The notes: generated by a model not told the origin, from the sequence alone. 32,617 nucleotides of DNA from an uncultured Gammaproteobacteria bacterium (GCA_964448505.1 CAYUWA010000002.1:61733-94349), one strand, 5' to 3'; positions 1,022 through 32,565 are shown, counted from the first letter of the stretch. A program made the numbers and translations.

Positions 1022-2116
1022 TTATCTGAGAAACTTGTTAAAATTTTCTTTATTAACAAGATGTGTTTCTGATTCTTTGTAAATTTTATTGAATTTATGA
1101 AGGGCTGATGTTATATTCTCTTTGGAAAATTTACATTCAAAAGCGACCATATTTCCTTGATCTAGTTCAACGAGGTCTATTTCGCTTTTATCATAGGTTC
1201 TCCAAAAATAATGCGATGGATAATGTCCGCGGTTATGCATAAATTTCAATCTTTCAATGATAAAGAAATTTTCAAAAATTTTACCGTTATCATTTCTTAA
1301 TTCAAGCGGCGCAACATCTTGAGCTAAAGTATTTCTTAAACCAATATCCAAGAAGTAAACTTTATAAGATTTTTTAATTTCGGAACTTAAGTTTCTTGAG
1401 AAAGAGTATAAACGTTTAATAATAAATGCCTGCTCAAGTAAAGCAATATATCTTTCCACGGTCGCCTTGTTCGTATCAAGTATTTTTGCCAGTCTGTCCG
1501 TTGAGATTTGTGATCCTACTTCTCTGGCCAGAGTTATCGCCAGCTTTTCAAAAACAACCGGTTTACGAATTTGTTCAAAATTAAAAACATCTTTATAGAG
1601 ATAATTTGTCGTGATATTTTGCAAACGATCAAGTTTGTCGTTTTGATTTGCGGAAACGATTCCTGGGTACATGCCGAAAGTTAATATGCCATTAAGATCT
1701 CTGCCCCCAATTTCATTATATGAAAGAGGGTATAGCATAAATTCATAAGTTCTTCCCGTCATTGGTTCGTTTATTTTATTTGCTAAATCAAAAGAGGATG
1801 ATCCAGTGGCGATAATTTGTATTTGCGGGTATGTGTCAGTAAAATTTTTAAGAATAAGCCCGATGTTTTCAATCGTTTGAGCTTCGTCTAACACGACGAT
1901 CTTATAATCTTTGATTTTTTCATATAAAAGTTCCGGCTGTCTCGGGACGAGAACATTTCTTATTTCCAGAAGCTCACAGTTAAAGTGCCGCCCCCTATCT
2001 TTGTAGGGTTCAATAATTGTTTTTGAAAGAGTAGTTTTGCCTGATTGCCTCGGTCCGAGAATAATGATAACTTTACCTTGAAAGAGTTTTTCCTCAATTC
2101 TTGTCCTTATTTCGCG
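1022..2116 (-). CDS. AAA+ ATPase of the AAA_14 + DUF4143 type (COG1373-like); the open frame extends beyond the ORF-track start and is interrupted by an in-frame TAA near the 5' end (possible pseudogene)
   Basis: The ORF-track start (GTG at 1894) falls inside the Walker B motif (VVLDEAQ). The same frame is open up to nt 2116 and encodes Walker A GPRQSGKTT. The C-terminal part (..YFWRTYDKSEIDLVE..) is DUF4143-like. There is no ATG/GTG/TTG between 1894 and 2116. An in-frame ATG at 2131-2129 is separated from the frame by a TAA at 2119-2117. Confidence 0.85.
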   Translation of the reverse strand, partial: REIRTRIEEKLFQGKVIIILGPRQSGKTTLSKTIIEPYKDRGRHFNCELLEIRNVLVPRQPELLYEKIKDYKIVVLDEAQTIENIGLILKNFTDTYPQIQIIATGSSSFDLANKINEPMTGRTYEFMLYPLSYNEIGGRDLNGILTFGMYPGIVSANQNDKLDRLQNITTNYLYKDVFNFEQIRKPVVFEKLAITLAREVGSQISTDRLAKILDTNKATVERYIALLEQAFIIKRLYSFSRNLSSEIKKSYKVYFLDIGLRNTLAQDVAPLELRNDNGKIFENFFIIERLKFMHNRGHYPSHYFWRTYDKSEIDLVELDQGNMVAFECKFSKENITSALHKFNKIYKESETHLVNKENFNKFLR

Positions 2117-2307: not shown

Positions 2308-3081
2308 ATGAAAAATACAATATTATCCGAAAAAGACGCAAATTTAATATCTCAGTCCATAATAAAATATGGCCGTATTTTAGATATAAAAAAATTGATG
2401 ACTATTTTTTCAATTGAATATTCGGCGAGCGCTGCCCATAATCGCATAAACAAACTGGTGCGTTCAGGTTGGCTTATGCGGATTAGACAAGGACTTTATC
2501 TAATAATTGATAATTTGAGTGCCCGCGATCAAAATGATATTTCCTTGATACGTATCGCTAATGTCTTGGATCATAATTCTTATGTCAGTTTGGCGTATGC
2601 TTTAAACTATCATCAATTATTTGATCAATATAGTAGAACGGTTATTAGCATCTCCGATAAAATTAATAAAAAATATAATTTTGACGGACATCTTTATCAA
2701 TTTTCTAAAGTTAAGAAAGAAATGTATTTTGGTTTTACGGAAGAGTTAGATGATGGTAAAATTATTAAAATTGCTGAAGCCGAAAAGGCTCTAATTGACT
2801 ACCTCTATCTTGATAATAGCTTTTTCAGTGCCAGTTTAGTTTTTGAAAAATTACGTGATAATTATCAAATGCTTGATCTTGATAAACTGCAGGTTTACGC
2901 GGCGCGAGCCGGGACAACGATCAGTCGGAAAATCGGTTTTTTATTGGATGCGGCAGCGATTGATAGTACAAGACTATATCAAAGTTTGAAAAATAAAAAA
3001 GGTTTTAATCGTTTTACTTCTGAGTCTAAATTATTTAACGCCAAATGGCGAATTTATTATGATGAACGAATTATTAGATAG
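2308..3081 (+). CDS. abiEi: AbiEi-family antitoxin / transcriptional regulator (type IV TA system)
   Basis: N-terminal wHTH-like region ending in the ..RIRQGLYLI motif typical of AbiEi. It sits immediately upstream of an AbiEii nucleotidyltransferase gene and overlaps it by 23 nt. Confidence 0.8.
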   Translation: MKNTILSEKDANLISQSIIKYGRILDIKKLMTIFSIEYSASAAHNRINKLVRSGWLMRIRQGLYLIIDNLSARDQNDISLIRIANVLDHNSYVSLAYALNYHQLFDQYSRTVISISDKINKKYNFDGHLYQFSKVKKEMYFGFTEELDDGKIIKIAEAEKALIDYLYLDNSFFSASLVFEKLRDNYQMLDLDKLQVYAARAGTTISRKIGFLLDAAAIDSTRLYQSLKNKKGFNRFTSESKLFNAKWRIYYDERIIR

Positions 3082-3823
3082 AACGGAATTGACGTTCGCT
3101 AATAAAGCTTTAAAATATCCCCTTGCCATTGCCGAGAAGGATTATTTTTTAGCGTTCACTTCGAAAATTATTTTTGAATCGGTACTTTCTGGTCGGCTTA
3201 TTTTTAAGGGCGGAACTGCTTTATATCATATCTATCTTCCGCAACTCAGATTTTCCGAAGACCTGGATTTTTCTAGCAACGCTCAAAAAATAGAGCTCAG
3301 TGAATTAAAGAAAATTTTTGCCGATTCGGAATTTTTTGAAATTAAAAAAGAATATATTTCCGATGCGACAATAAAAATTGAGAAGTTGCAGTACCGCGGG
3401 CCCTTGGGTCTTGCCAATTCTTTAAAGGTTGAAGTTGATTTTCTGCAGAATGTTATTTTGCCGCCTTTAGAGCTTGATTACCAAAATGTTTATGGGGTTG
3501 AAACTAAAATGCGGGTCATGGATATCCGCGAAATTGCCGCTGAAAAAATTCGCGCAATGAATGATCGTATTCGTTATCGAGATTTTTATGATTTTGCGAT
3601 GATTCTTCTGAAGTTAAAAATAGATTTAAAAGAAGTTGAGGCTCTTTTACCGAAAAAAGAAGTTAGAAAAAACATGAGCCTGGAAAATATTTTAAATAAT
3701 TGGCTTTTGGCTAAACAAGAAAAACTAAAGGAATCATCTTCTATATATTTTTCTGAAGAATTAAGCGATGTGCAAATTGAAGAGCAGCTTAATAAGTTAG
3801 AGTTTGCCCCCATCTTATTATAA
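3059..3823 (+). CDS. abiEii: AbiEii/AbiGii-family nucleotidyltransferase toxin (DUF1814)
   Basis: Hallmark motifs FKGGTALYHIY and RFSEDLDFS near the N-terminus. The ~250-aa size and the gene overlap with abiEi also fit. Confidence 0.9.
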   Translation: MMNELLDRTELTFANKALKYPLAIAEKDYFLAFTSKIIFESVLSGRLIFKGGTALYHIYLPQLRFSEDLDFSSNAQKIELSELKKIFADSEFFEIKKEYISDATIKIEKLQYRGPLGLANSLKVEVDFLQNVILPPLELDYQNVYGVETKMRVMDIREIAAEKIRAMNDRIRYRDFYDFAMILLKLKIDLKEVEALLPKKEVRKNMSLENILNNWLLAKQEKLKESSSIYFSEELSDVQIEEQLNKLEFAPILL

Positions 3824-17568: not shown

Positions 17569-19554
17569 ATGAGTTTAAATTATTTTTTCAATCCCGAAGC
17601 GGTCGCTATTTTAGGCGCTTCAAGCAATAAGAAAAAAATCGGTCGCCAAGTACTGGATAATATAAGTCAAGGCGGTTTTAAAGGAAGAATTTATCCGATA
17701 AATTTACAAGAAAAAAAAGTCGCCGGCCTGAAGGCTTATCCGGATTTGTTAAAACTGCCCAAGCAAGATTTCAATAAATTATTACTCGTTATCGCTATTC
17801 CGGCGCAATTTGTCGTTGAAGAGATAAAAAAATGCGTTAGTCTTGGAATTAAAAACGTAATTATTATCAGTGCCGGATTCAAAGAAGCAGGAGCAGATGG
17901 TATTAATCAGGAAAAAGAAATTATTAGCCTCGCTGAGGCTCATAAAATAAATATTTTAGGACCAAATTGTTTAGGGCTTATTAATACTTTTAATAATCTA
18001 AATGCCAGTTTTGCCGCGAGCGGCGTCAGGCCGGGGAAAATTGCCTTATTATCACAATCAGGAGCAGTCGGAAGTGCCGCTCTTGATTGGCTTAGAACTA
18101 AAGACTTTAACTTGGCATATTTTGTAAGTTTAGGTAACAAAGCGGTTCTAGATGAGAATGATTTATTGGAATATTTAGCGCATGATAAAAGAATAGAAAT
18201 GGTTGTCGCGTATTTGGAGGAAATTAGTGACGGAGAAAGATTCATGTCGCTCGTTTCTAGGTTGGCGAAGAGAAAACCAGTGGCAATTTTAAAAGCAGGT
18301 AGCAGCTCCGCCGGAGGCGAAATGGCCAAGTCTCATACCGGTTCTTTAGCCGGTTCAAACGAAGCAGTTATAAGCGGGCTGAAAAGAGCCGGAGCGATTT
18401 GTTTAAATAACCTGGAGGAATTATTTAATTTATTGTTTTTATTTCAAAAACAAGCCTGGAAGAATAAGGGTTTGCAAGATTTGCATTTGCTGACTAATGC
18501 CGGCGGGCCGGCGGTTTTAACGGTTGATGCCTTAAGTCGGAAAGGGCTTTCTTTGGGCTCTAGTCTTGATTTATTGGGTGACGCCGATGCCTTGCGTTAT
18601 GAAAATGCTTTAAATAAATTATTGGAAAATAAGAAAGTTAATAATGTCTTGGTTCTTCTAACGCCGCAGACCGTTACTGAACCGCTTAAGACAGCGGAGA
18701 TTATTGTTGAGGCGGCTAAAAAATATCCGAATAAATTAATTATGGCGAGCTTTATCGGCGGAGGCGCGGTAAGATCGGCTCGGTCATTATTGGAAGACCA
18801 TGAAATCCCATTTTTTGAGTATCCGGAAGAAGCAATTGAAACTTTCAAACAATTAAATCTCTATAAAATCAGAATGAGGGATTTAAGCGATTATAGAAAA
18901 TTTAACGGTAGAATAAAAAAAGCAATTAAAGACGATGATTACTTAAAGTCGCTTTCCTTGTTAAAGCAATATGGAATTTCAACCGTTAAAACTCATAAAT
19001 ATAAAGGCGAGGCTATAAATAGTTTAAAATTTCCGGTTGTTTTAAAAGCGGTTGGTCCGGATTTTTTACATAAAACCGAAAAAGGAGGCGTCGTCGTCAA
19101 TCTAAAATCGGAAAAGGAGTTAAAACAAGCGGCGCGTAATCTCTTGAATAAAAATTCTAAGGTTTTTAATAATAGTCGTAATTATTTAGTTGTTCAAAAT
19201 CAAGCCAGTAAATTTCAGGAAATAATTATCGGGTTTAAAAGAGATGTTTCATTCGGACCGATTATGATGGTCGGTCTTGGCGGGATTTACGCGGAAATAT
19301 TTAAGGAAGTTAAATTAGAAGTTGCCGATCTTGATTTTAAACGAGCCTTACTTATGATTAAAAGCTTAAAAATATATCCGATTTTAGACGGGGCGCGCGG
19401 GCAAAAAAAGTATAACGTTAAAGCTTTGGCAAAAGTAATTGTTAATTTAGCGAAGCTCGCTAATGAACATCCGGAAATAAAAGAATTGGATATAAACCCG
19501 GCCTTCATTTTTGAAGAAGGCGTTCTAGCCGGGGATGTTAGAATTATTTTATAG
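17569..19554 (+). CDS. acetate--CoA ligase (ADP-forming), fused alpha/beta (NDP-forming acyl-CoA synthetase)
   Basis: N-terminal CoA-binding motif VAILGASSNKKKIGRQV, phosphohistidine loop MAKSHTGSLAGS, and a C-terminal ATP-grasp-like half. Confidence 0.9.
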   Translation: MSLNYFFNPEAVAILGASSNKKKIGRQVLDNISQGGFKGRIYPINLQEKKVAGLKAYPDLLKLPKQDFNKLLLVIAIPAQFVVEEIKKCVSLGIKNVIIISAGFKEAGADGINQEKEIISLAEAHKINILGPNCLGLINTFNNLNASFAASGVRPGKIALLSQSGAVGSAALDWLRTKDFNLAYFVSLGNKAVLDENDLLEYLAHDKRIEMVVAYLEEISDGERFMSLVSRLAKRKPVAILKAGSSSAGGEMAKSHTGSLAGSNEAVISGLKRAGAICLNNLEELFNLLFLFQKQAWKNKGLQDLHLLTNAGGPAVLTVDALSRKGLSLGSSLDLLGDADALRYENALNKLLENKKVNNVLVLLTPQTVTEPLKTAEIIVEAAKKYPNKLIMASFIGGGAVRSARSLLEDHEIPFFEYPEEAIETFKQLNLYKIRMRDLSDYRKFNGRIKKAIKDDDYLKSLSLLKQYGISTVKTHKYKGEAINSLKFPVVLKAVGPDFLHKTEKGGVVVNLKSEKELKQAARNLLNKNSKVFNNSRNYLVVQNQASKFQEIIIGFKRDVSFGPIMMVGLGGIYAEIFKEVKLEVADLDFKRALLMIKSLKIYPILDGARGQKKYNVKALAKVIVNLAKLANEHPEIKELDINPAFIFEEGVLAGDVRIIL

Positions 19555-27289: not shown

Positions 27290-27694
27290 ATGCCAAAATT
27301 TATTATATTTAGCGACGGCGGAGCAAGAGGCAACCCCGGTCCGGCCGGCATCGGTGCGATTATTTACGATGAAAAGAATAAGATCGTTTCGGAATTGTCC
27401 GAGTATTTAGGTGTCTCAACGAATAATCAAGCCGAGTATAAAGCTTTAATTATGGCCTTAAAAAAGGCGGCTGCGCTTAGAGGAGAGGAGCTTGTTTGTT
27501 ATTTAGATAGCGAACTCGTCGTTAAACAACTTAATCGGGAATACAAAATAAAAAATAAAGACCTGGCGCCTTTATTTTTAGAAGTTTATAATTTAAGCTT
27601 AGGTTTTAAGAAAATATCATTTGTTCATATTCCGCGAGAGAAAAATAAGGAAGCAGATAGACTTGCCAACAAAGCGATGGATAGAGGGGAATAA
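27290..27694 (+). CDS. rnhA: ribonuclease HI family protein
   Basis: SDGGARGNPGPAGIG.., ..NNQAEYKAL.., ..DSELVV.., ..NKEADRLAN (DEDD catalytic pattern). Confidence 0.9.
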   Translation: MPKFIIFSDGGARGNPGPAGIGAIIYDEKNKIVSELSEYLGVSTNNQAEYKALIMALKKAAALRGEELVCYLDSELVVKQLNREYKIKNKDLAPLFLEVYNLSLGFKKISFVHIPREKNKEADRLANKAMDRGE

Positions 27695-27696
27695 TA

Positions 27697-29199
27697 TTAT
27701 TTAACGTGGAGGTGGCTGCCGGTCGCTTTCTCAGTCTGTACACCGTCGCAATTAGGATATTCATTCAGGACACTTAGTCCTGATTTTTGTAAAATAGAGA
27801 TTAATTTTTTTACATTATCGCAAGTAGCATTCGCGCTATAAAGAGCAACATCAACGCAAGTTCCATCGTTATGGCATAGAGAAGCGTGATCGATAGTTTT
27901 CGGGTAAGCTTCAGTAATTTGCCATTCAAGGCCATTAGAATTATTCCAAGCAGTGTTTAATTTATTTAGTAAAGAATTATTGGCAAAACGATGGCTGTCT
28001 TTTGTTGGTATTTTTGTTATTTCAGAACAGTCGTTACAGGTGCCAGAGCAAGAGCCGATTGTTAATTTTCCGACACCAGTTGACGACAACGCTTTATCTA
28101 GAGAGTCACCGCTCCAAATATCAATTCTTTTACCTTTAATCGCTCCGCCCCTATCAGTTATAGTATAAGTTTTTCCCTTGAAACAAACTTTTTCTCCAAA
28201 AGGAAGATTGCTACAATCTGGCCCGGCTATATCTCCATCTTTTGGTTCGCTATCACTCGCTGTTTTATTGCAATAAGGGGTATTTTTATCAAACTTTTTA
28301 CAAGGCTTATAGTCTGGAAAAGTTTTTTTGTACATGGGGCAAGTTTTTGACTCATCTCGACCTTGGGGACAGGAACATTGCATCCCGACTATACAAAAAA
28401 AATCGTCACTGTCTTCCCATGCCGGTTTATAGTACCCGGTAGCATAGAAGTCAACACCATTTTTTAACTCCTCGTCCGTTGCACAACCGGAACTAATAAA
28501 CTTAGAAGCGGCGGCGGATGCTTTAGCGCTTGATAAAGCTTCAGCTTTTTCCAGTCTTCCGACAGTAATCGGTTGGAAATTAACTAAATCGGGATTGATT
28601 TGAGCAAGGATTATATAAGAAGCTAAAAGAATAACCAGACCGGAAACACTTCCGATAATAAGTTCTTTAGCTTGCGTAACTTTTGAAGCATCACCGCCGG
28701 AAACAAGCCAAAGTATGCCGCCCGCCATTAGAACTAGGGCAGCGAGAATTCCGGCGATTTTAACGCCGTAGTCGTAAATATTAATAATATATTCGCTTAG
28801 CCAAAATACCTTGCATTGATAATTACCGCTTTCATCAATTTCACATTGCGGTTGACTTAATTTTTCTTGCAAGCCGTTTATATCTACTTGTAAAGTAGGA
28901 ATAACGAATTTAGGGGCCTCCTGGGTTGAAGCATTAAAATAATCGCCTGTACAGCAGCAGACATATCTAGTATTAGTAAATGCAAAACTGGTGGTGGTAG
29001 GCTTTGTCCCGGAACAAATTTCACCAGCCCTTGCTTGATGTTCATCACTATAACAACCCTGAGTTGTTTGTGAAGAACTTAATTCGGGGTTAGTATTAGT
29101 TGTTTCAGCTCTCCATGCGCATTTGGTTTCCGCATTAGCCATCAGTGGCGATAGAAATAAAGCTAAGAAGGAAAATATAAATATTTTTTTTATTTTCAT
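27697..29199 (-). CDS. secreted Cys-rich protein: VirB2/T4SS-pilin-like two-helix hairpin fused to MltA/3D-like and LAS (M15-like) peptidoglycan hydrolase domains
   Basis: Signal peptide ..PLMANA/ETK. 8 Cys in residues 27-129. Pilin-like hairpin at residues 134-211 (IAGILAALVLMAGGILWLVSGGDASKVTQAKELIIGSVSGLVILLASYIILAQINP). ATGYYKP plus ..TITDRGGAIKGKRIDIW.. (3D/MltA-like). C-terminal H-x6-D (CHNDGTCVD) and HLH (Zn-peptidase LAS pattern). Confidence 0.8.
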   Translation of the reverse strand: MKIKKIFIFSFLALFLSPLMANAETKCAWRAETTNTNPELSSSQTTQGCYSDEHQARAGEICSGTKPTTTSFAFTNTRYVCCCTGDYFNASTQEAPKFVIPTLQVDINGLQEKLSQPQCEIDESGNYQCKVFWLSEYIINIYDYGVKIAGILAALVLMAGGILWLVSGGDASKVTQAKELIIGSVSGLVILLASYIILAQINPDLVNFQPITVGRLEKAEALSSAKASAAASKFISSGCATDEELKNGVDFYATGYYKPAWEDSDDFFCIVGMQCSCPQGRDESKTCPMYKKTFPDYKPCKKFDKNTPYCNKTASDSEPKDGDIAGPDCSNLPFGEKVCFKGKTYTITDRGGAIKGKRIDIWSGDSLDKALSSTGVGKLTIGSCSGTCNDCSEITKIPTKDSHRFANNSLLNKLNTAWNNSNGLEWQITEAYPKTIDHASLCHNDGTCVDVALYSANATCDNVKKLISILQKSGLSVLNEYPNCDGVQTEKATGSHLHVK

Positions 29200-29200
29200 A

Positions 29201-30073
29201 TTAAAGTTTATATTTTTCTAGATTATAATCGGCTATTTCTTGAATTGCTTTTAAATCGTTTTCTTTAAGATGTTTGAATCTTCCTTGAGCGCTTAAGTAT
29301 TCTTTTACTGGCTTACTTTTAAAATTAGAATTTATACTTGAGGCGCTTAATTTTCCGTTAGTATATTCTAGGAGCGGATATAATCCGGTTTTTACGGCGA
29401 GTTTCCCCATAAAAATCGCGTCGTCGGTTTTTATTTTCCAACCGGGAACACAAGGAGCAAGAATTTGGATATATGAAGGACCTTTAGCTTCTAGGGCTTT
29501 TTTAATTTTGTTAGTTATATCGTCTGGAAAACCGGCCGTACTTTGGGCGACGTATTTTAAACCGTGCGACAGAGCAATTCCTATCATATCCTTTTTTCTT
29601 TGAGTTGAACCGATAGAATTTTCGCCGTCCGGAGTTGTTGTCGTTGAAGCGCCATAAGGCGTCGCGCCCGAAGCTTGGATTCCGGTATTAGAATAGGCTT
29701 CGGTATCGTAACAGACGTATAAAATATTTTCTCCCCTTTCCCACATCCCGCTAATAAGACCCATTCCAATATCATAAGTTCCGCCGTCTCCTGCTTGAAC
29801 TAATACTTTAGTTTTTTTGTCCCCTTTCTTATTTAAAGCGGCAAGAATTCCCGAAGCAACCGAAGAAGCATTTTCAAATAAAGAATGAATCCAGGGAAGA
29901 CCCCAGGCGCTTTGCGGATAAGCGGTTGTTGTTACCTCTAAACAACCGGTTGCGTTAGCAATTATAACATTCTCGTTTAATCCACGCATAACCGCTTGAA
30001 CAGCAGATAATTGTCCACAGCCGGCACAAGCATTATGACCGGGAGATATAAATTTGTTTTGATTAGTTTTCAT
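29201..30073 (-). CDS. porB: pyruvate:ferredoxin oxidoreductase, beta (TPP-binding) subunit
   Basis: PGHNACAGCG near the N-terminus, the GDGGTYDIG TPP motif, and ~290 aa. Confidence 0.93.
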   Translation of the reverse strand: MKTNQNKFISPGHNACAGCGQLSAVQAVMRGLNENVIIANATGCLEVTTTAYPQSAWGLPWIHSLFENASSVASGILAALNKKGDKKTKVLVQAGDGGTYDIGMGLISGMWERGENILYVCYDTEAYSNTGIQASGATPYGASTTTTPDGENSIGSTQRKKDMIGIALSHGLKYVAQSTAGFPDDITNKIKKALEAKGPSYIQILAPCVPGWKIKTDDAIFMGKLAVKTGLYPLLEYTNGKLSASSINSNFKSKPVKEYLSAQGRFKHLKENDLKAIQEIADYNLEKYKL

Positions 30074-30084
30074 AAATTATCTTT

Positions 30085-31155
30085 TTATTCCGTATAACAA
30101 CAGTATAAATCATTCGTGGCACATTGGCGGCCACCGCTATTATCGCGATAATATTTTTTGATCGTCGTCCCCAGTCTGCTACAGGTTATAGAAGAGCAGT
30201 AAGCGCCAGGTTCTGTTCCGCAGTGTGACGATTCCTCTCCTTTTCCTCTGTAACAATATCCTTCGTAACAAAAACCATTTAATGAAATATCGTTAAACAT
30301 TCCTGAATTTACAATATCCGGGCAACTTTCCCCGTCCTTTATATCTGTGCAACTAGATACTTTGCCCCTACATTCCGAGATGTTATAACAAGAACCGTCT
30401 TTTTTTTCAGACAATATTTTTATTTCATTATTAAAGTAACTTCCACAGTTTTCGCGTATTTCTTGGGTGTTTTCACTCATAAAATTAAAACAAAATTCAA
30501 CTTTTCCCTCGCAATCATTTTTAATTAAACAACTAATTTTATCTTTGACGCAAGTCCTCCCAACAACTGAGTATGTAAATTCATTCGTGGATTCATAGAA
30601 TGTTGTTCCTACGAAAGCGTCACATTCTTTCTGGCTCATTATTTCCGCTGTGTTAGATGATTGGCAACAACCCTCAACAACCTTTTCTATATAACTTAGG
30701 CCGATTGGTCTTAATGCCAATAAATCAGGATTAATTGTGTTTAAAATTATCCAAGAGCTAAGTAAAATTACTAGTCCGGAAATGCTTCCGATAATAAGCT
30801 CTTTCGCTTGTCCGACTTTTCCGGAATCGCCTCCCGAAGTTAACCAGATAACGCCTCCAGCCATTAAGACTATTGCCGCTAAAATCCCTGCCGCCGCCAT
30901 GCCGTAGTCGTATAAGCCTTTAATATATTTAGCAAGTAAGTCGCTTTTCATTTGGCCATTGCTTTCTTGCCCGACATTTACGCTATCGCCTTTATTAACG
31001 AGATTAGGAATACTGACATTGGGAGAAAACTTTAAAGACTCTTTAATATCGGCGGAGGCGATTTTCGGGGCGGAGATTAAAAGACCAAAGCCGATTATTT
31101 GTAAGACCAATAAGGAAAGAAGAGAAATTTTAATAAATTTAAAATTTAATTTCAT
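30085..31155 (-). CDS. secreted protein: VirB2/T4SS-pilin-like two-helix hairpin followed by a ~195-aa domain with 20 cysteines
   Basis: N-terminal signal/anchor. Residues 74-151 are 54/78 identical to residues 134-211 of the 27697..29199 product. C-terminal region with 20 Cys (GCCQSS.. to ..LYCCYTE). The start overlaps the porA stop (ATGA). Confidence 0.8.
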   Translation of the reverse strand: MKLNFKFIKISLLSLLVLQIIGFGLLISAPKIASADIKESLKFSPNVSIPNLVNKGDSVNVGQESNGQMKSDLLAKYIKGLYDYGMAAAGILAAIVLMAGGVIWLTSGGDSGKVGQAKELIIGSISGLVILLSSWIILNTINPDLLALRPIGLSYIEKVVEGCCQSSNTAEIMSQKECDAFVGTTFYESTNEFTYSVVGRTCVKDKISCLIKNDCEGKVEFCFNFMSENTQEIRENCGSYFNNEIKILSEKKDGSCYNISECRGKVSSCTDIKDGESCPDIVNSGMFNDISLNGFCYEGYCYRGKGEESSHCGTEPGAYCSSITCSRLGTTIKKYYRDNSGGRQCATNDLYCCYTE

Positions 31156-32300
31156 ATTTTTCCGATAAATTTTATTTGTTTATTTTTAAGCGGTAAATCT
31201 TTAACTATCTTTTTAATCATTTCAGTTCTAATATCTCTACCGCCAAGACCGACGATATAGTTTTTTATATTTTTATTACCGCTTACCGCCGTTTTAATAT
31301 CGGTATAAAGCGGTCCGGCTTGACCGAGGCTTATCGCTTTTTCAATCACGCCAATATTTTTTATATTCTTTAGAATTTTATTTATTTCTTCTCCGGGAAA
31401 AGGGCGATAGGTTTTTATCTTTAAAACGCCGACTTTCTTATTTCCTTTTAAAGTTTCACGAATCGTTCCGACAATAGATCCCATAGCAATTAAAATACTT
31501 TCCGGATTTTTCGGCCCGTAATATTCTATTAAGCCGTTATCGCTCGTTTTAAGGTTAAAAACTTTTTTTAATAAACTATATTCTTGTTTAATTACGCTCA
31601 GGCTATTTATTAAATCGTTATGAAGACTTTCCCGAGCTTCAAAATAATATTCCGGCGAGAAAAAAGAGCCGAGAGTTACCGGATTTTTAGGATTTAAATA
31701 AGTTCCCGTTTCAGGCTTATAATAAGGTAAGAATTTTTTTATTTCTTTAGACTCCGGAATTATAACCGCTTCATAAGAATGAGTAAGAATAAAACCATCA
31801 ACATTTACTAGAACCGGCAGTTTTAATTTCTCCGCTATTTTATAAGCTAAAATATGTTGATAAATTGCTTCTTGATTATCTTCGGAAAATAACTGAATAA
31901 ATCCGGAATCCCTAACGCTCATGGCGTCGCTATGATCATTCCAAATATTAATTGGCGCGGAAACGGCGCGGTTAGCGCAGGTCATAACTATCGGCAGGCG
32001 CATACCGGCAATATTATAAACAACCTCGTTCATTAGTAATAGCCCTTGCGAACTAGTTGCGCTATAGGTACGAACGCCGGTCGCGCTCGCGCCAAGAACA
32101 ATAGAGGCGGCGGCAAATTCGCTCTCTGCTCTTACATACTCATAATTAGCTTGCCCCTCCGCTTTAAATTTAGCCAAGTCCTCAACGATATGGGTTTGCG
32201 GTGTAATCGGGTAAGCGGAAACGACATCCGGCGCAATATTTTTTATTACTTGCGCTATCGCGTTAGAGCCCTCCAGAAATTGTTTTTTATTTTTAATCAT
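31152..32300 (-). CDS. porA: pyruvate:ferredoxin oxidoreductase, alpha subunit
   Basis: ..GSNAIAQVIKNIAPDVVSAYPITPQTHIVE.. N-terminal POR signature and ~380 aa. Confidence 0.93.
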   Translation of the reverse strand: MIKNKKQFLEGSNAIAQVIKNIAPDVVSAYPITPQTHIVEDLAKFKAEGQANYEYVRAESEFAAASIVLGASATGVRTYSATSSQGLLLMNEVVYNIAGMRLPIVMTCANRAVSAPINIWNDHSDAMSVRDSGFIQLFSEDNQEAIYQHILAYKIAEKLKLPVLVNVDGFILTHSYEAVIIPESKEIKKFLPYYKPETGTYLNPKNPVTLGSFFSPEYYFEARESLHNDLINSLSVIKQEYSLLKKVFNLKTSDNGLIEYYGPKNPESILIAMGSIVGTIRETLKGNKKVGVLKIKTYRPFPGEEINKILKNIKNIGVIEKAISLGQAGPLYTDIKTAVSGNKNIKNYIVGLGGRDIRTEMIKKIVKDLPLKNKQIKFIGKI

Positions 32301-32307
32301 AACAAAT

Positions 32308-32565
32308 TTAATAATCTTTTCTCATTTCTATCGCCTTAACCGGGCATTCTTTAGCGCAGAGCCCGCAGCCCTTACAATAATCAAAATCAGTTTGCGGTTT
32401 TAATTTAGAATTTATCATTTTCATTTCAATACAAGCCTCGGGACAGATTTTAGCACAAAAAGAACAGCCGATGCACTTTAAATTATCGGTTACCGGTTTT
32501 AAGGTCCGCCAATTGCCGGTCTTATTATTTAGAGATGAATTTTTCTTGGCGATTAGATTTTTCAT
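32308..32565 (-). CDS. porD: pyruvate:ferredoxin oxidoreductase, delta subunit (2x[4Fe-4S] ferredoxin)
   Basis: Two CxxCxxCxxxCP clusters: CIGCSFCAKICP and CKGCGLCAKECP. 85 aa. Confidence 0.9.
   Translation of the reverse strand: MKNLIAKKNSSLNNKTGNWRTLKPVTDNLKCIGCSFCAKICPEACIEMKMINSKLKPQTDFDYCKGCGLCAKECPVKAIEMRKDY

Follow-up and report, generated by a model that had tools for sequence, protein, structure and literature searches.

The pilCys gene and its surroundings

Why would the operon of a central fermentative enzyme carry, between the genes for its alpha and beta subunits, a gene for a cysteine-rich, pilin-like protein? The question is raised by a stretch of DNA of 32,617 nucleotides, referred to here as the window, in which five tightly packed genes occupy the minus strand at 27697-32565 in the order porD, porA, pilCys, porB, and pilX. 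The porD gene (32308..32565) encodes the delta subunit, a 2x[4Fe-4S] ferredoxin-like protein matched by the Pfam Fer4 families, and porA (31152..32300) encodes the alpha subunit with the Pfam domains POR_N and PFOR_II. The porB gene (29201..30073) starts 11 nt past the stop codon of pilCys and encodes the TPP-binding beta subunit, which has a TPP_enzyme_C domain and homologues named pyruvate ferredoxin oxidoreductase beta subunit. Among the best 120 PorB matches, the nearest with a name come from a "Patescibacteria group bacterium" and, at 77% identity, a Candidatus Falkowbacteria MAG; the host of pilCys is a Patescibacteria (CPR) bacterium.

On the sequence evidence set out below, we consider it rather likely that the pilCys product is exported, oxidised by DsbA, and displayed as a binding module on the cell surface or on a pilus, and that its gene is co-transcribed with those of pyruvate ferredoxin oxidoreductase (POR). 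A direct catalytic role of the protein in pyruvate oxidation is not proposed.

The pilCys gene (30085..31155, minus strand) encodes 356 amino acids, which comprise a signal peptide, a VirB2-like hairpin, and an ectodomain with 20 cysteines. This annotation was based on the open reading frame, Pfam, the orthologues P0001 and P0017, and 14 further representatives. An earlier note on this DNA had placed the ATG of the gene over the stop codon of porA, and the sequence bears this out: the start codon overlaps the porA TGA in an ATGA at 31152..31155 (minus strand), where the junction reads ...GGAAAAATATGAAATTA... The same overlap of porA stop and pilin start occurs in 5 of the 12 lineages compared, the remaining gaps being at most 59 nt. 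The pilCys gene is probably translationally coupled to porA.

Hydropathy analysis of the protein gave three hydrophobic segments, at residues 3-34, 81-109, and 119-141, as would be produced by a signal peptide followed by two helices with a short loop between them. The first belongs to a Sec-type signal peptide (residues 1-35; 31051..31155, minus strand) with a K-rich n-region, a hydrophobic core, and the end ..KIASA|D, and cleavage would fall after KIASA. Downstream of it, outside the Pfam domain, the family alignment revealed a motif F-x-P-x-V-x-I-P (residues 43-50; 31006..31029, minus strand), in which F43 and P50 are nearly invariant across the family. In the Pfam scan, PF18895 was the sole match of pilCys, with no homology to the domains of 2-oxoacid:ferredoxin oxidoreductases. 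Rfam gave no match anywhere in the window.

The cysteine-rich domain

The ectodomain (residues 160-356; 30088..30678, minus strand) is supported by conservation and the AlphaFold2 model. As described in the earlier note, it holds 20 cysteines, all of them within residues 163-353, and it is framed by CC pairs at residues 163/164 and 352/353. With 5.6% cysteine, pilCys stands apart from most other proteins of the window (0-1.3%). The spacings between its cysteines are 1,14,24,7,6,7,15,19,6,7,9,18,5,11,8,5,20,7,1, and neither CxxC nor CxxCxxC spacing is present in the domain.

Relatives of this domain were rare. A word-indexed search with residues 155-356 against 5.8 billion proteins returned a single relative, P0001, which is 43% identical to pilCys over the full length and keeps 20/20 cysteines; all 20 are retained in orthologues at about 40% identity (41-43%). 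Word-indexed homologue searches in general yielded 1-5 relatives, and an exhaustive HMMER scan was needed to reveal the family. For this, a two-sequence profile was run against 1.84 billion cluster representatives, and only 14 proteins were found at E <= 1e-3. Each of them is 330-430 amino acids long, and all are built from a signal peptide, the hairpin, and a Cys-rich domain.

The family alignment showed that the conservation of the domain is concentrated in its cysteines: the mean pairwise identity is 90% in the Cys columns of the ectodomain and 25% in the non-Cys columns, and 13 Cys columns are invariant across 17 family members. Each of the 17 has an even number of cysteines downstream of the hairpin (18, 20, 22, or 26), as do five proteins found later (16, 20, 20, 16, and 22), which makes 22 of 22 relatives with an even number and five different values (16/18/20/22/26). 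Between subfamilies, cysteines are gained or lost in twos. In P0007 and P0008, an extra C-terminal module of six cysteines (the last ~55 residues) resembles the final ~45 residues of the domain.

A 17-sequence alignment was used as the input for AlphaFold2, since a two-sequence alignment had given a pLDDT of 39.6 and this model was discarded. The resulting model of the ectodomain is confident and mostly beta-strand (pLDDT 83, pTM 0.68). The structure prediction and Foldseek comparison that the earlier note had proposed for the C-terminal region were thus carried out, and Foldseek found no structural relative in the PDB (best E 3.4, TM < 0.2) and none in BFVD. A profile search of the ectodomain against PDB sequences was empty, and a Pfam scan of 17/17 members gave no domain in the Cys-rich region, so that no well-known housekeeping domain was matched. 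Together with the empty PHROGs and PADLOC searches of pilCys, these scans agree with the former statement that no enzymatic motif is recognisable in this region. The terminal CG..G.C...CC module recalls hevein or chitin-binding domains, but this idea was abandoned, as there was no match to Chitin_bind_1 or any other Pfam family at E <= 1. On the alignment and the model, the ectodomain is best described as a real, conserved, and previously undescribed Cys-scaffold domain, neither a low-complexity region nor a known metal-binding motif.

Variation of the domain between genomes

Twenty-four related loci were compared with the window. L001-L011 were reached through family members and L012-L019 through a metagenome scan with ectodomain patterns, the related-locus search using a five-sequence alignment as the query. 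L020-L024 were selected solely for a close PorB on a long contig, the PorB matches being the best 120 with at least 77% identity.

The ectodomain proved to be far more variable than the neighbouring enzyme. In L018, the identity to the window is 89% for PorB, 75% for the hairpin, and 39% for the ectodomain; in L006, the corresponding values are 83%, 68%, and 30%. Over L006, L018, and L019, the ectodomain thus falls to 30-39% while PorB holds at 82-89%. The closest relative is L012, with 73% identity to the window in the ectodomain. In L022 and L024, the same slot is filled by a member of the same ectodomain family (hhalign probability 98%), and in L020, L021, and L023 by other Cys-rich modules in which homology to the pilCys ectodomain was not detectable. 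The por-embedded pilin of L024 (3755-4978) also has an N-terminal Cys module that is otherwise typical of the hydrolase-bearing paralogue described below. P0007, P0008, and L024 show signs of module shuffling.

The ectodomain therefore retains only its Cys scaffold and either diverges fast or is swapped, a pattern typical of surface-exposed modules for binding or recognition. It is plausibly such a module, facing outside and perhaps directed toward a host cell.

The VirB2-like hairpin and its paralogue

The part of pilCys with a known family is the hairpin at residues 75-141 (30733..30933, minus strand), which matches the Pfam T4SS_pilin family PF18895 with 32.4 bits against a gathering score of 26.6. 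Pfam and hydropathy place TM1 at ~81-103 and TM2 at ~119-141, with the conserved loop WLTSGGDSGKVGQAKE between them. No match to PF04956 (TrbC/VirB2) was found in pilCys at E <= 0.1.

A second hairpin is encoded by pilX (27697..29199, minus strand), which starts 1 nt past the porB stop. Its product of 500 amino acids consists of a signal peptide, an N-terminal Cys module, the hairpin (nt 28567-28800), a 3D-like domain, and a LAS/Hedgehog-type Zn-peptidase-like end, and its PF18895 score of 25.3 bits lies slightly under the cut-off of 26.6. In the Zn-peptidase-like end, H-x6-D ... H-x-H is invariant, and weak PDB profile matches point to Hedgehog N-domains (E 0.014). The gene after porB keeps the N-terminal Cys module (C.W...C...CCC) and the hairpin constant, and its C-terminal enzyme domain is swapped between genomes. 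The 3D-like domain with the LAS/Hedgehog-type Zn-peptidase-like end is found in the window and L012, and in L005 (5033-7187) these two domains are split over two hairpin genes. VanY/M15 takes their place in L006 (2731-3876), L022, and L023, NlpC/P60 in L004 (9461-10786) and L017 (4418-5611), and Peptidase_C39_2 in L016 (3156-4421). The pilX architecture is in effect a VirB2-VirB1-like fusion.

The paralogy of the two hairpins, claimed from a hand alignment with 54/78 identities, was reproduced: residues 74-151 of pilCys (nt 30703-30936) and residues 134-211 of pilX are identical at 54 of 78 positions. A formal alignment, chosen beforehand as a test of this similarity, found it significant, with 59/98 ungapped identities and a BLASTP E value of 1e-34. 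Nothing significant was aligned outside the hairpin, as expected from the remark that the flanks differ. The likeness said to be visible at the DNA level is also present, the 14-mer CTTCCGATAATAAG occurring exactly twice, at 28649 and 30785. Over the hairpin, the two DNA sequences are identical at 148/234 positions and at merely 33/78 third codon positions, which marks the genes as old paralogues whose similarity is maintained at the protein level. With only 42% identity at third codon positions, a recent duplication or gene conversion was rejected as the source of the similarity. Judged by this codon pattern, the hairpin is under purifying selection.

Within the pilCys family, the mean pairwise identity of the hairpin is 62%. 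The cytoplasmic loop of pilCys is equally conserved in the paralogue that is not flanked by POR genes and in PF18895 at large. Such strong conservation suggests a conserved partner or self-assembly, either in a T4SS-type pilus or in a membrane pool.

A signal peptide followed by an even number of membrane passes would place the C-terminal domain outside the cell. The extracellular location proposed in the earlier note also agrees with the paralogues, in which peptidoglycan hydrolases occupy the same C-terminal position. The C-terminal domain of pilCys is thus predicted to lie outside the cell.

Does the hairpin build a pilus, or does it only hold the domain in the membrane? Neither the 32.6-kb window nor any of the 24 fetched loci contained T4SS genes (virB4, virB6, or similar), so that the incorporation of pilCys into a pilus is unsupported by its context. 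Moreover, a domain of 200 residues on each subunit is hard to fit into a VirB2-type filament, and pilCys may be no more than a surface protein with a membrane anchor, or else a minor subunit or one at the tip. In its strictest form, the alternative is a plain surface protein: the hairpin would be a two-helix anchor that never polymerises and is unrelated to T4SS, and the Cys-rich domain would act at the surface of the cell itself, for example in binding to the wall or S-layer or as a structural coat. Besides the absence of T4SS genes and the size of the ectodomain, the wall hydrolases of the sister hairpin proteins speak for it, as they could act on the cell's own peptidoglycan. Against it stands the conservation of the hairpin and its short cytoplasmic loop, which, with a mean identity of 62% within the family and 54/78 positions shared by the old paralogues, far exceeds the need of a passive anchor. 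We regard this alternative as unlikely, yet as one that deserves serious weight. It should be noted that considerably more certainty attaches to the core of our own reading, an exported surface module with disulfide bonds and a hairpin anchor, than to its adhesin or pilus part.

A conserved place in the por operon

In all 24 loci, wherever the contig reaches, porA and porB are separated by a gene for a PF18895 hairpin protein whose C-terminal part is rich in cysteine. The conserved block runs on one strand in the order dsbA, porG, porD, porA, pilCys, porB, and one or two pilX genes. It is flanked on the opposite strand by ExoIII (in most loci with LeuRS beyond it) on one side and by RNase H, RecJ, and LepA on the other. 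Across the loci, the identity to the window is 56-82% for PorA and 64-89% for PorB. The earlier note had called a Cys-rich module unexpected in an organism relying on PFOR; the comparison overturns this view, as the module is instead a conserved, built-in part of the por operon across a Patescibacteria lineage.

The gap between the pilin gene and porB is 0-22 nt in most lineages. In the promoter and terminator scan, which carried little information in this AT-rich DNA, terminator-like sites occurred at the background level, with none between the operon genes. This spacing and gene order are consistent with co-transcription of pilCys with the POR genes. A single clean terminator-like hairpin with a T-run was present in the region (27765-27783, plus strand), just past the RNase H stop and within the convergent 500-aa gene, at its 3' end.

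Several other features of these loci were recorded. In L008 (153-2293), porA is split by an intein with a homing endonuclease (Hom_end_hint, Intein_splicing, LAGLIDADG_3), and the gene was called in two pieces. The RNase H of the window (27290-27694) was called as two pieces of 80 and 56 aa in L002 (4924-5339), a JGI contig otherwise 100% identical to the window, which suggests a frameshift difference between assemblies or strains. At 17569-19554 (plus strand), 10 kb from the por operon, the window encodes an ADP-forming acetyl-CoA synthetase (CoA_binding, Succ_CoA_lig, ATP-grasp_5), the expected partner for turning POR-derived acetyl-CoA into acetate and ATP. Farther away, at 2308-3823 (plus strand), two overlapping genes encode an AbiEi-like antitoxin and an AbiEii nucleotidyltransferase toxin, a pair of the type IV toxin-antitoxin/abortive-infection kind, which is adjoined by a 5'-truncated AAA_14/DUF4143 ATPase ORF (1022-1894, minus strand).

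How far may function be read from this gene order? In its widest form, the hairpin proteins, DsbA, and POR would make up a conserved seven-gene unit that couples the main energy-yielding oxidoreductase to an envelope apparatus. In this apparatus, VirB2-like anchors would carry wall hydrolases and a binding domain knotted by disulfides, with which the cell would attach to a host and open it. Such a coupling might be stoichiometric, or it could even be a redox link from the ferredoxin pool to extracellular thiol-disulfide chemistry. We hold this reading to be highly improbable. The whole neighbourhood is collinear in the lineage, and conserved position alone is therefore no proof of a functional link to POR; as the flanking ExoIII, RNase H, RecJ, LepA, and LeuRS genes are also syntenic, the position of pilCys could be an inherited accident.

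Hardly any more credit can be given, and in our estimate slightly less, to a direct tie between pilCys and POR, either as a membrane tether or as a redox partner that links ferredoxin and POR to extracellular thiol-disulfide chemistry with DsbA. Its best arguments are the strict position of the gene between porA and porB at PorB identities down to 64%, the frequent overlap of start and stop codons, and the dsbA gene at the head of the same operon. Nevertheless, only ~14 residues of pilCys would face the cytoplasm, in the very loop that is conserved to the same degree without POR genes beside it, and no conserved Cys was found in the TM helices of the pilCys family. The ectodomain is swapped for unrelated modules while PorA and PorB stay conserved, neighbours as unrelated as RNase H, RecJ, LepA, and ExoIII are equally syntenic, and an electron flow from DsbA to ferredoxin is implausible on general knowledge of redox potentials.

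DsbA and the state of the cysteines

In every locus that extends far enough, dsbA is the first gene of the operon, upstream of porG. It lies at 4849-5601 in L004, and an equivalent gene is present in L001, L005, L010-L012, L014, L017, and L020-L024. As the window ends just upstream of porD, the dsbA and porG genes of this genome are assumed from its closest relative, L012. The DsbA-like protein combines a membrane anchor at its N-terminus with a CPYC active site, and it matches PF13462/PF01323. The fetched DNA of the related loci showed no gene for a DsbB/VKOR-type partner.

The earlier note had left the choice between a disulfide-rich and a metal-binding module. Its first half is now favoured and its second disfavoured: a metal- or Fe-S-binding domain, which the 5.6% of cysteine, the adjacent genes for Fe-S proteins, and the presumably anaerobic organism might suggest, is highly improbable in view of the predicted extracytoplasmic location, the lack of CxxC/CxxCxxC, the always even number of cysteines that changes in twos, the DsbA in the operon, and the lack of a match to any ferredoxin or zinc-finger family. 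A ferredoxin reading of the region was likewise rejected on Cys spacing and topology. The ectodomain is probably locked by about ten disulfide bonds, and the DsbA of the operon would be the enzyme that oxidises it.

The proposed role

In the reading that we prefer, the Sec signal peptide would bring the mature N-terminus of pilCys outside the cell, and the VirB2-type hairpin would cross the membrane in and out, leaving the C-terminal domain of 200 residues on the surface. There, the ectodomain would fold into a compact, mostly beta-strand module with about ten disulfides introduced by the membrane-anchored DsbA-like oxidoreductase of the operon. The conserved hairpin and loop may contact a conserved partner, in pilus assembly or in self-association. 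Meanwhile, the variable ectodomain may bind or recognise a target under diversifying pressure, for example the envelope of a host cell. The gene would share a transcript with porG-porD-porA, porB, and the gene of the second hairpin protein, which carries the hydrolases, and translational coupling is probable as well.

Such a locus would be a concrete candidate for a host-recognition or attachment module. It would also mean that a pilin hairpin is used as a carrier of globular extracellular modules, namely a new domain predicted to be disulfide-knotted and interchangeable peptidoglycan hydrolases, and that a whole lineage interleaves hairpin genes and a dedicated DsbA with the genes of its central fermentative enzyme. 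Two questions follow: how DsbA is reoxidised in a fermentative, presumably quinone-less organism, and why a gene for a surface protein splits the operon of a four-subunit enzyme in 24/24 genomes.

Comparison with known systems

PF18895 is a family of VirB2-like pilins found across Patescibacteria, often as arrays of divergent paralogues (PMC12102498). In a cultivated Saccharibacterium, the VirB2-like pilin array is essential (PMC12102498; PMC12857230), and these pilins are among the few surface components of Patescibacteria shown to be essential for the epibiotic lifestyle (PMC12857230, PMC11665869). Their association with T4SS genes is frequent, though not universal (1,135 of 1,948 assemblies; PMC12102498). 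Like them, pilCys has a signal peptide, a two-helix hairpin above the HMM cut-off, divergent paralogues nearby, and a place in the Patescibacteria lineage. Unlike the described members, it has a C-terminal domain of 200 residues that is predicted to be disulfide-rich, it lies in a por operon and not near virB4, and the paralogue beside it is fused to peptidoglycan hydrolases. Fusions of the pilin domain, Cys-rich extensions, and linkage to por operons are mentioned in neither PMC12102498 nor PMC12857230, and a literature search likewise returned no such links. The carrier hairpin is known, whereas no earlier description seems to exist of the ectodomain, of the hairpin's modular use, or of the conserved dsbA-por-pilin operon.

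In pilins of the TrbC/VirB2 and F-type TraA kinds, the two ends of the hairpin lie outside and only a short loop faces the cytoplasm, which is the topology predicted for pilCys; extensions at the C-terminus of F pilin are exposed on the surface of the pilus. Classical conjugative pilins are about 70-120 residues long when mature and have no globular domain. Over the hairpin (residues 72-141), pilCys weakly resembles (E 7e-4) the Mbov_0395 family pilin-like conjugal transfer protein of mycoplasma ICEs (NCBIfam NF045849), but at 19 bits against a cut-off of 40 it is not a member of that family. Large C-terminal domains are known from minor or tip type IV pilins of the CofB/TcpB type, and VirB5 proteins are tip adhesins. 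Their resemblance to pilCys is a functional analogy only, that of a pilin-type anchor with a globular binding domain, as the folds and assembly systems are unrelated.

Finally, in canonical four-subunit porGDAB operons (Pyrococcus, Thermotoga, and porCDAB of Helicobacter), porA and porB are adjacent. The operon described here contains these four subunits, likewise in the order G, D, A, B, but a foreign gene for a membrane protein parts porA from porB, dsbA stands before porG, and a hairpin-hydrolase gene follows porB.
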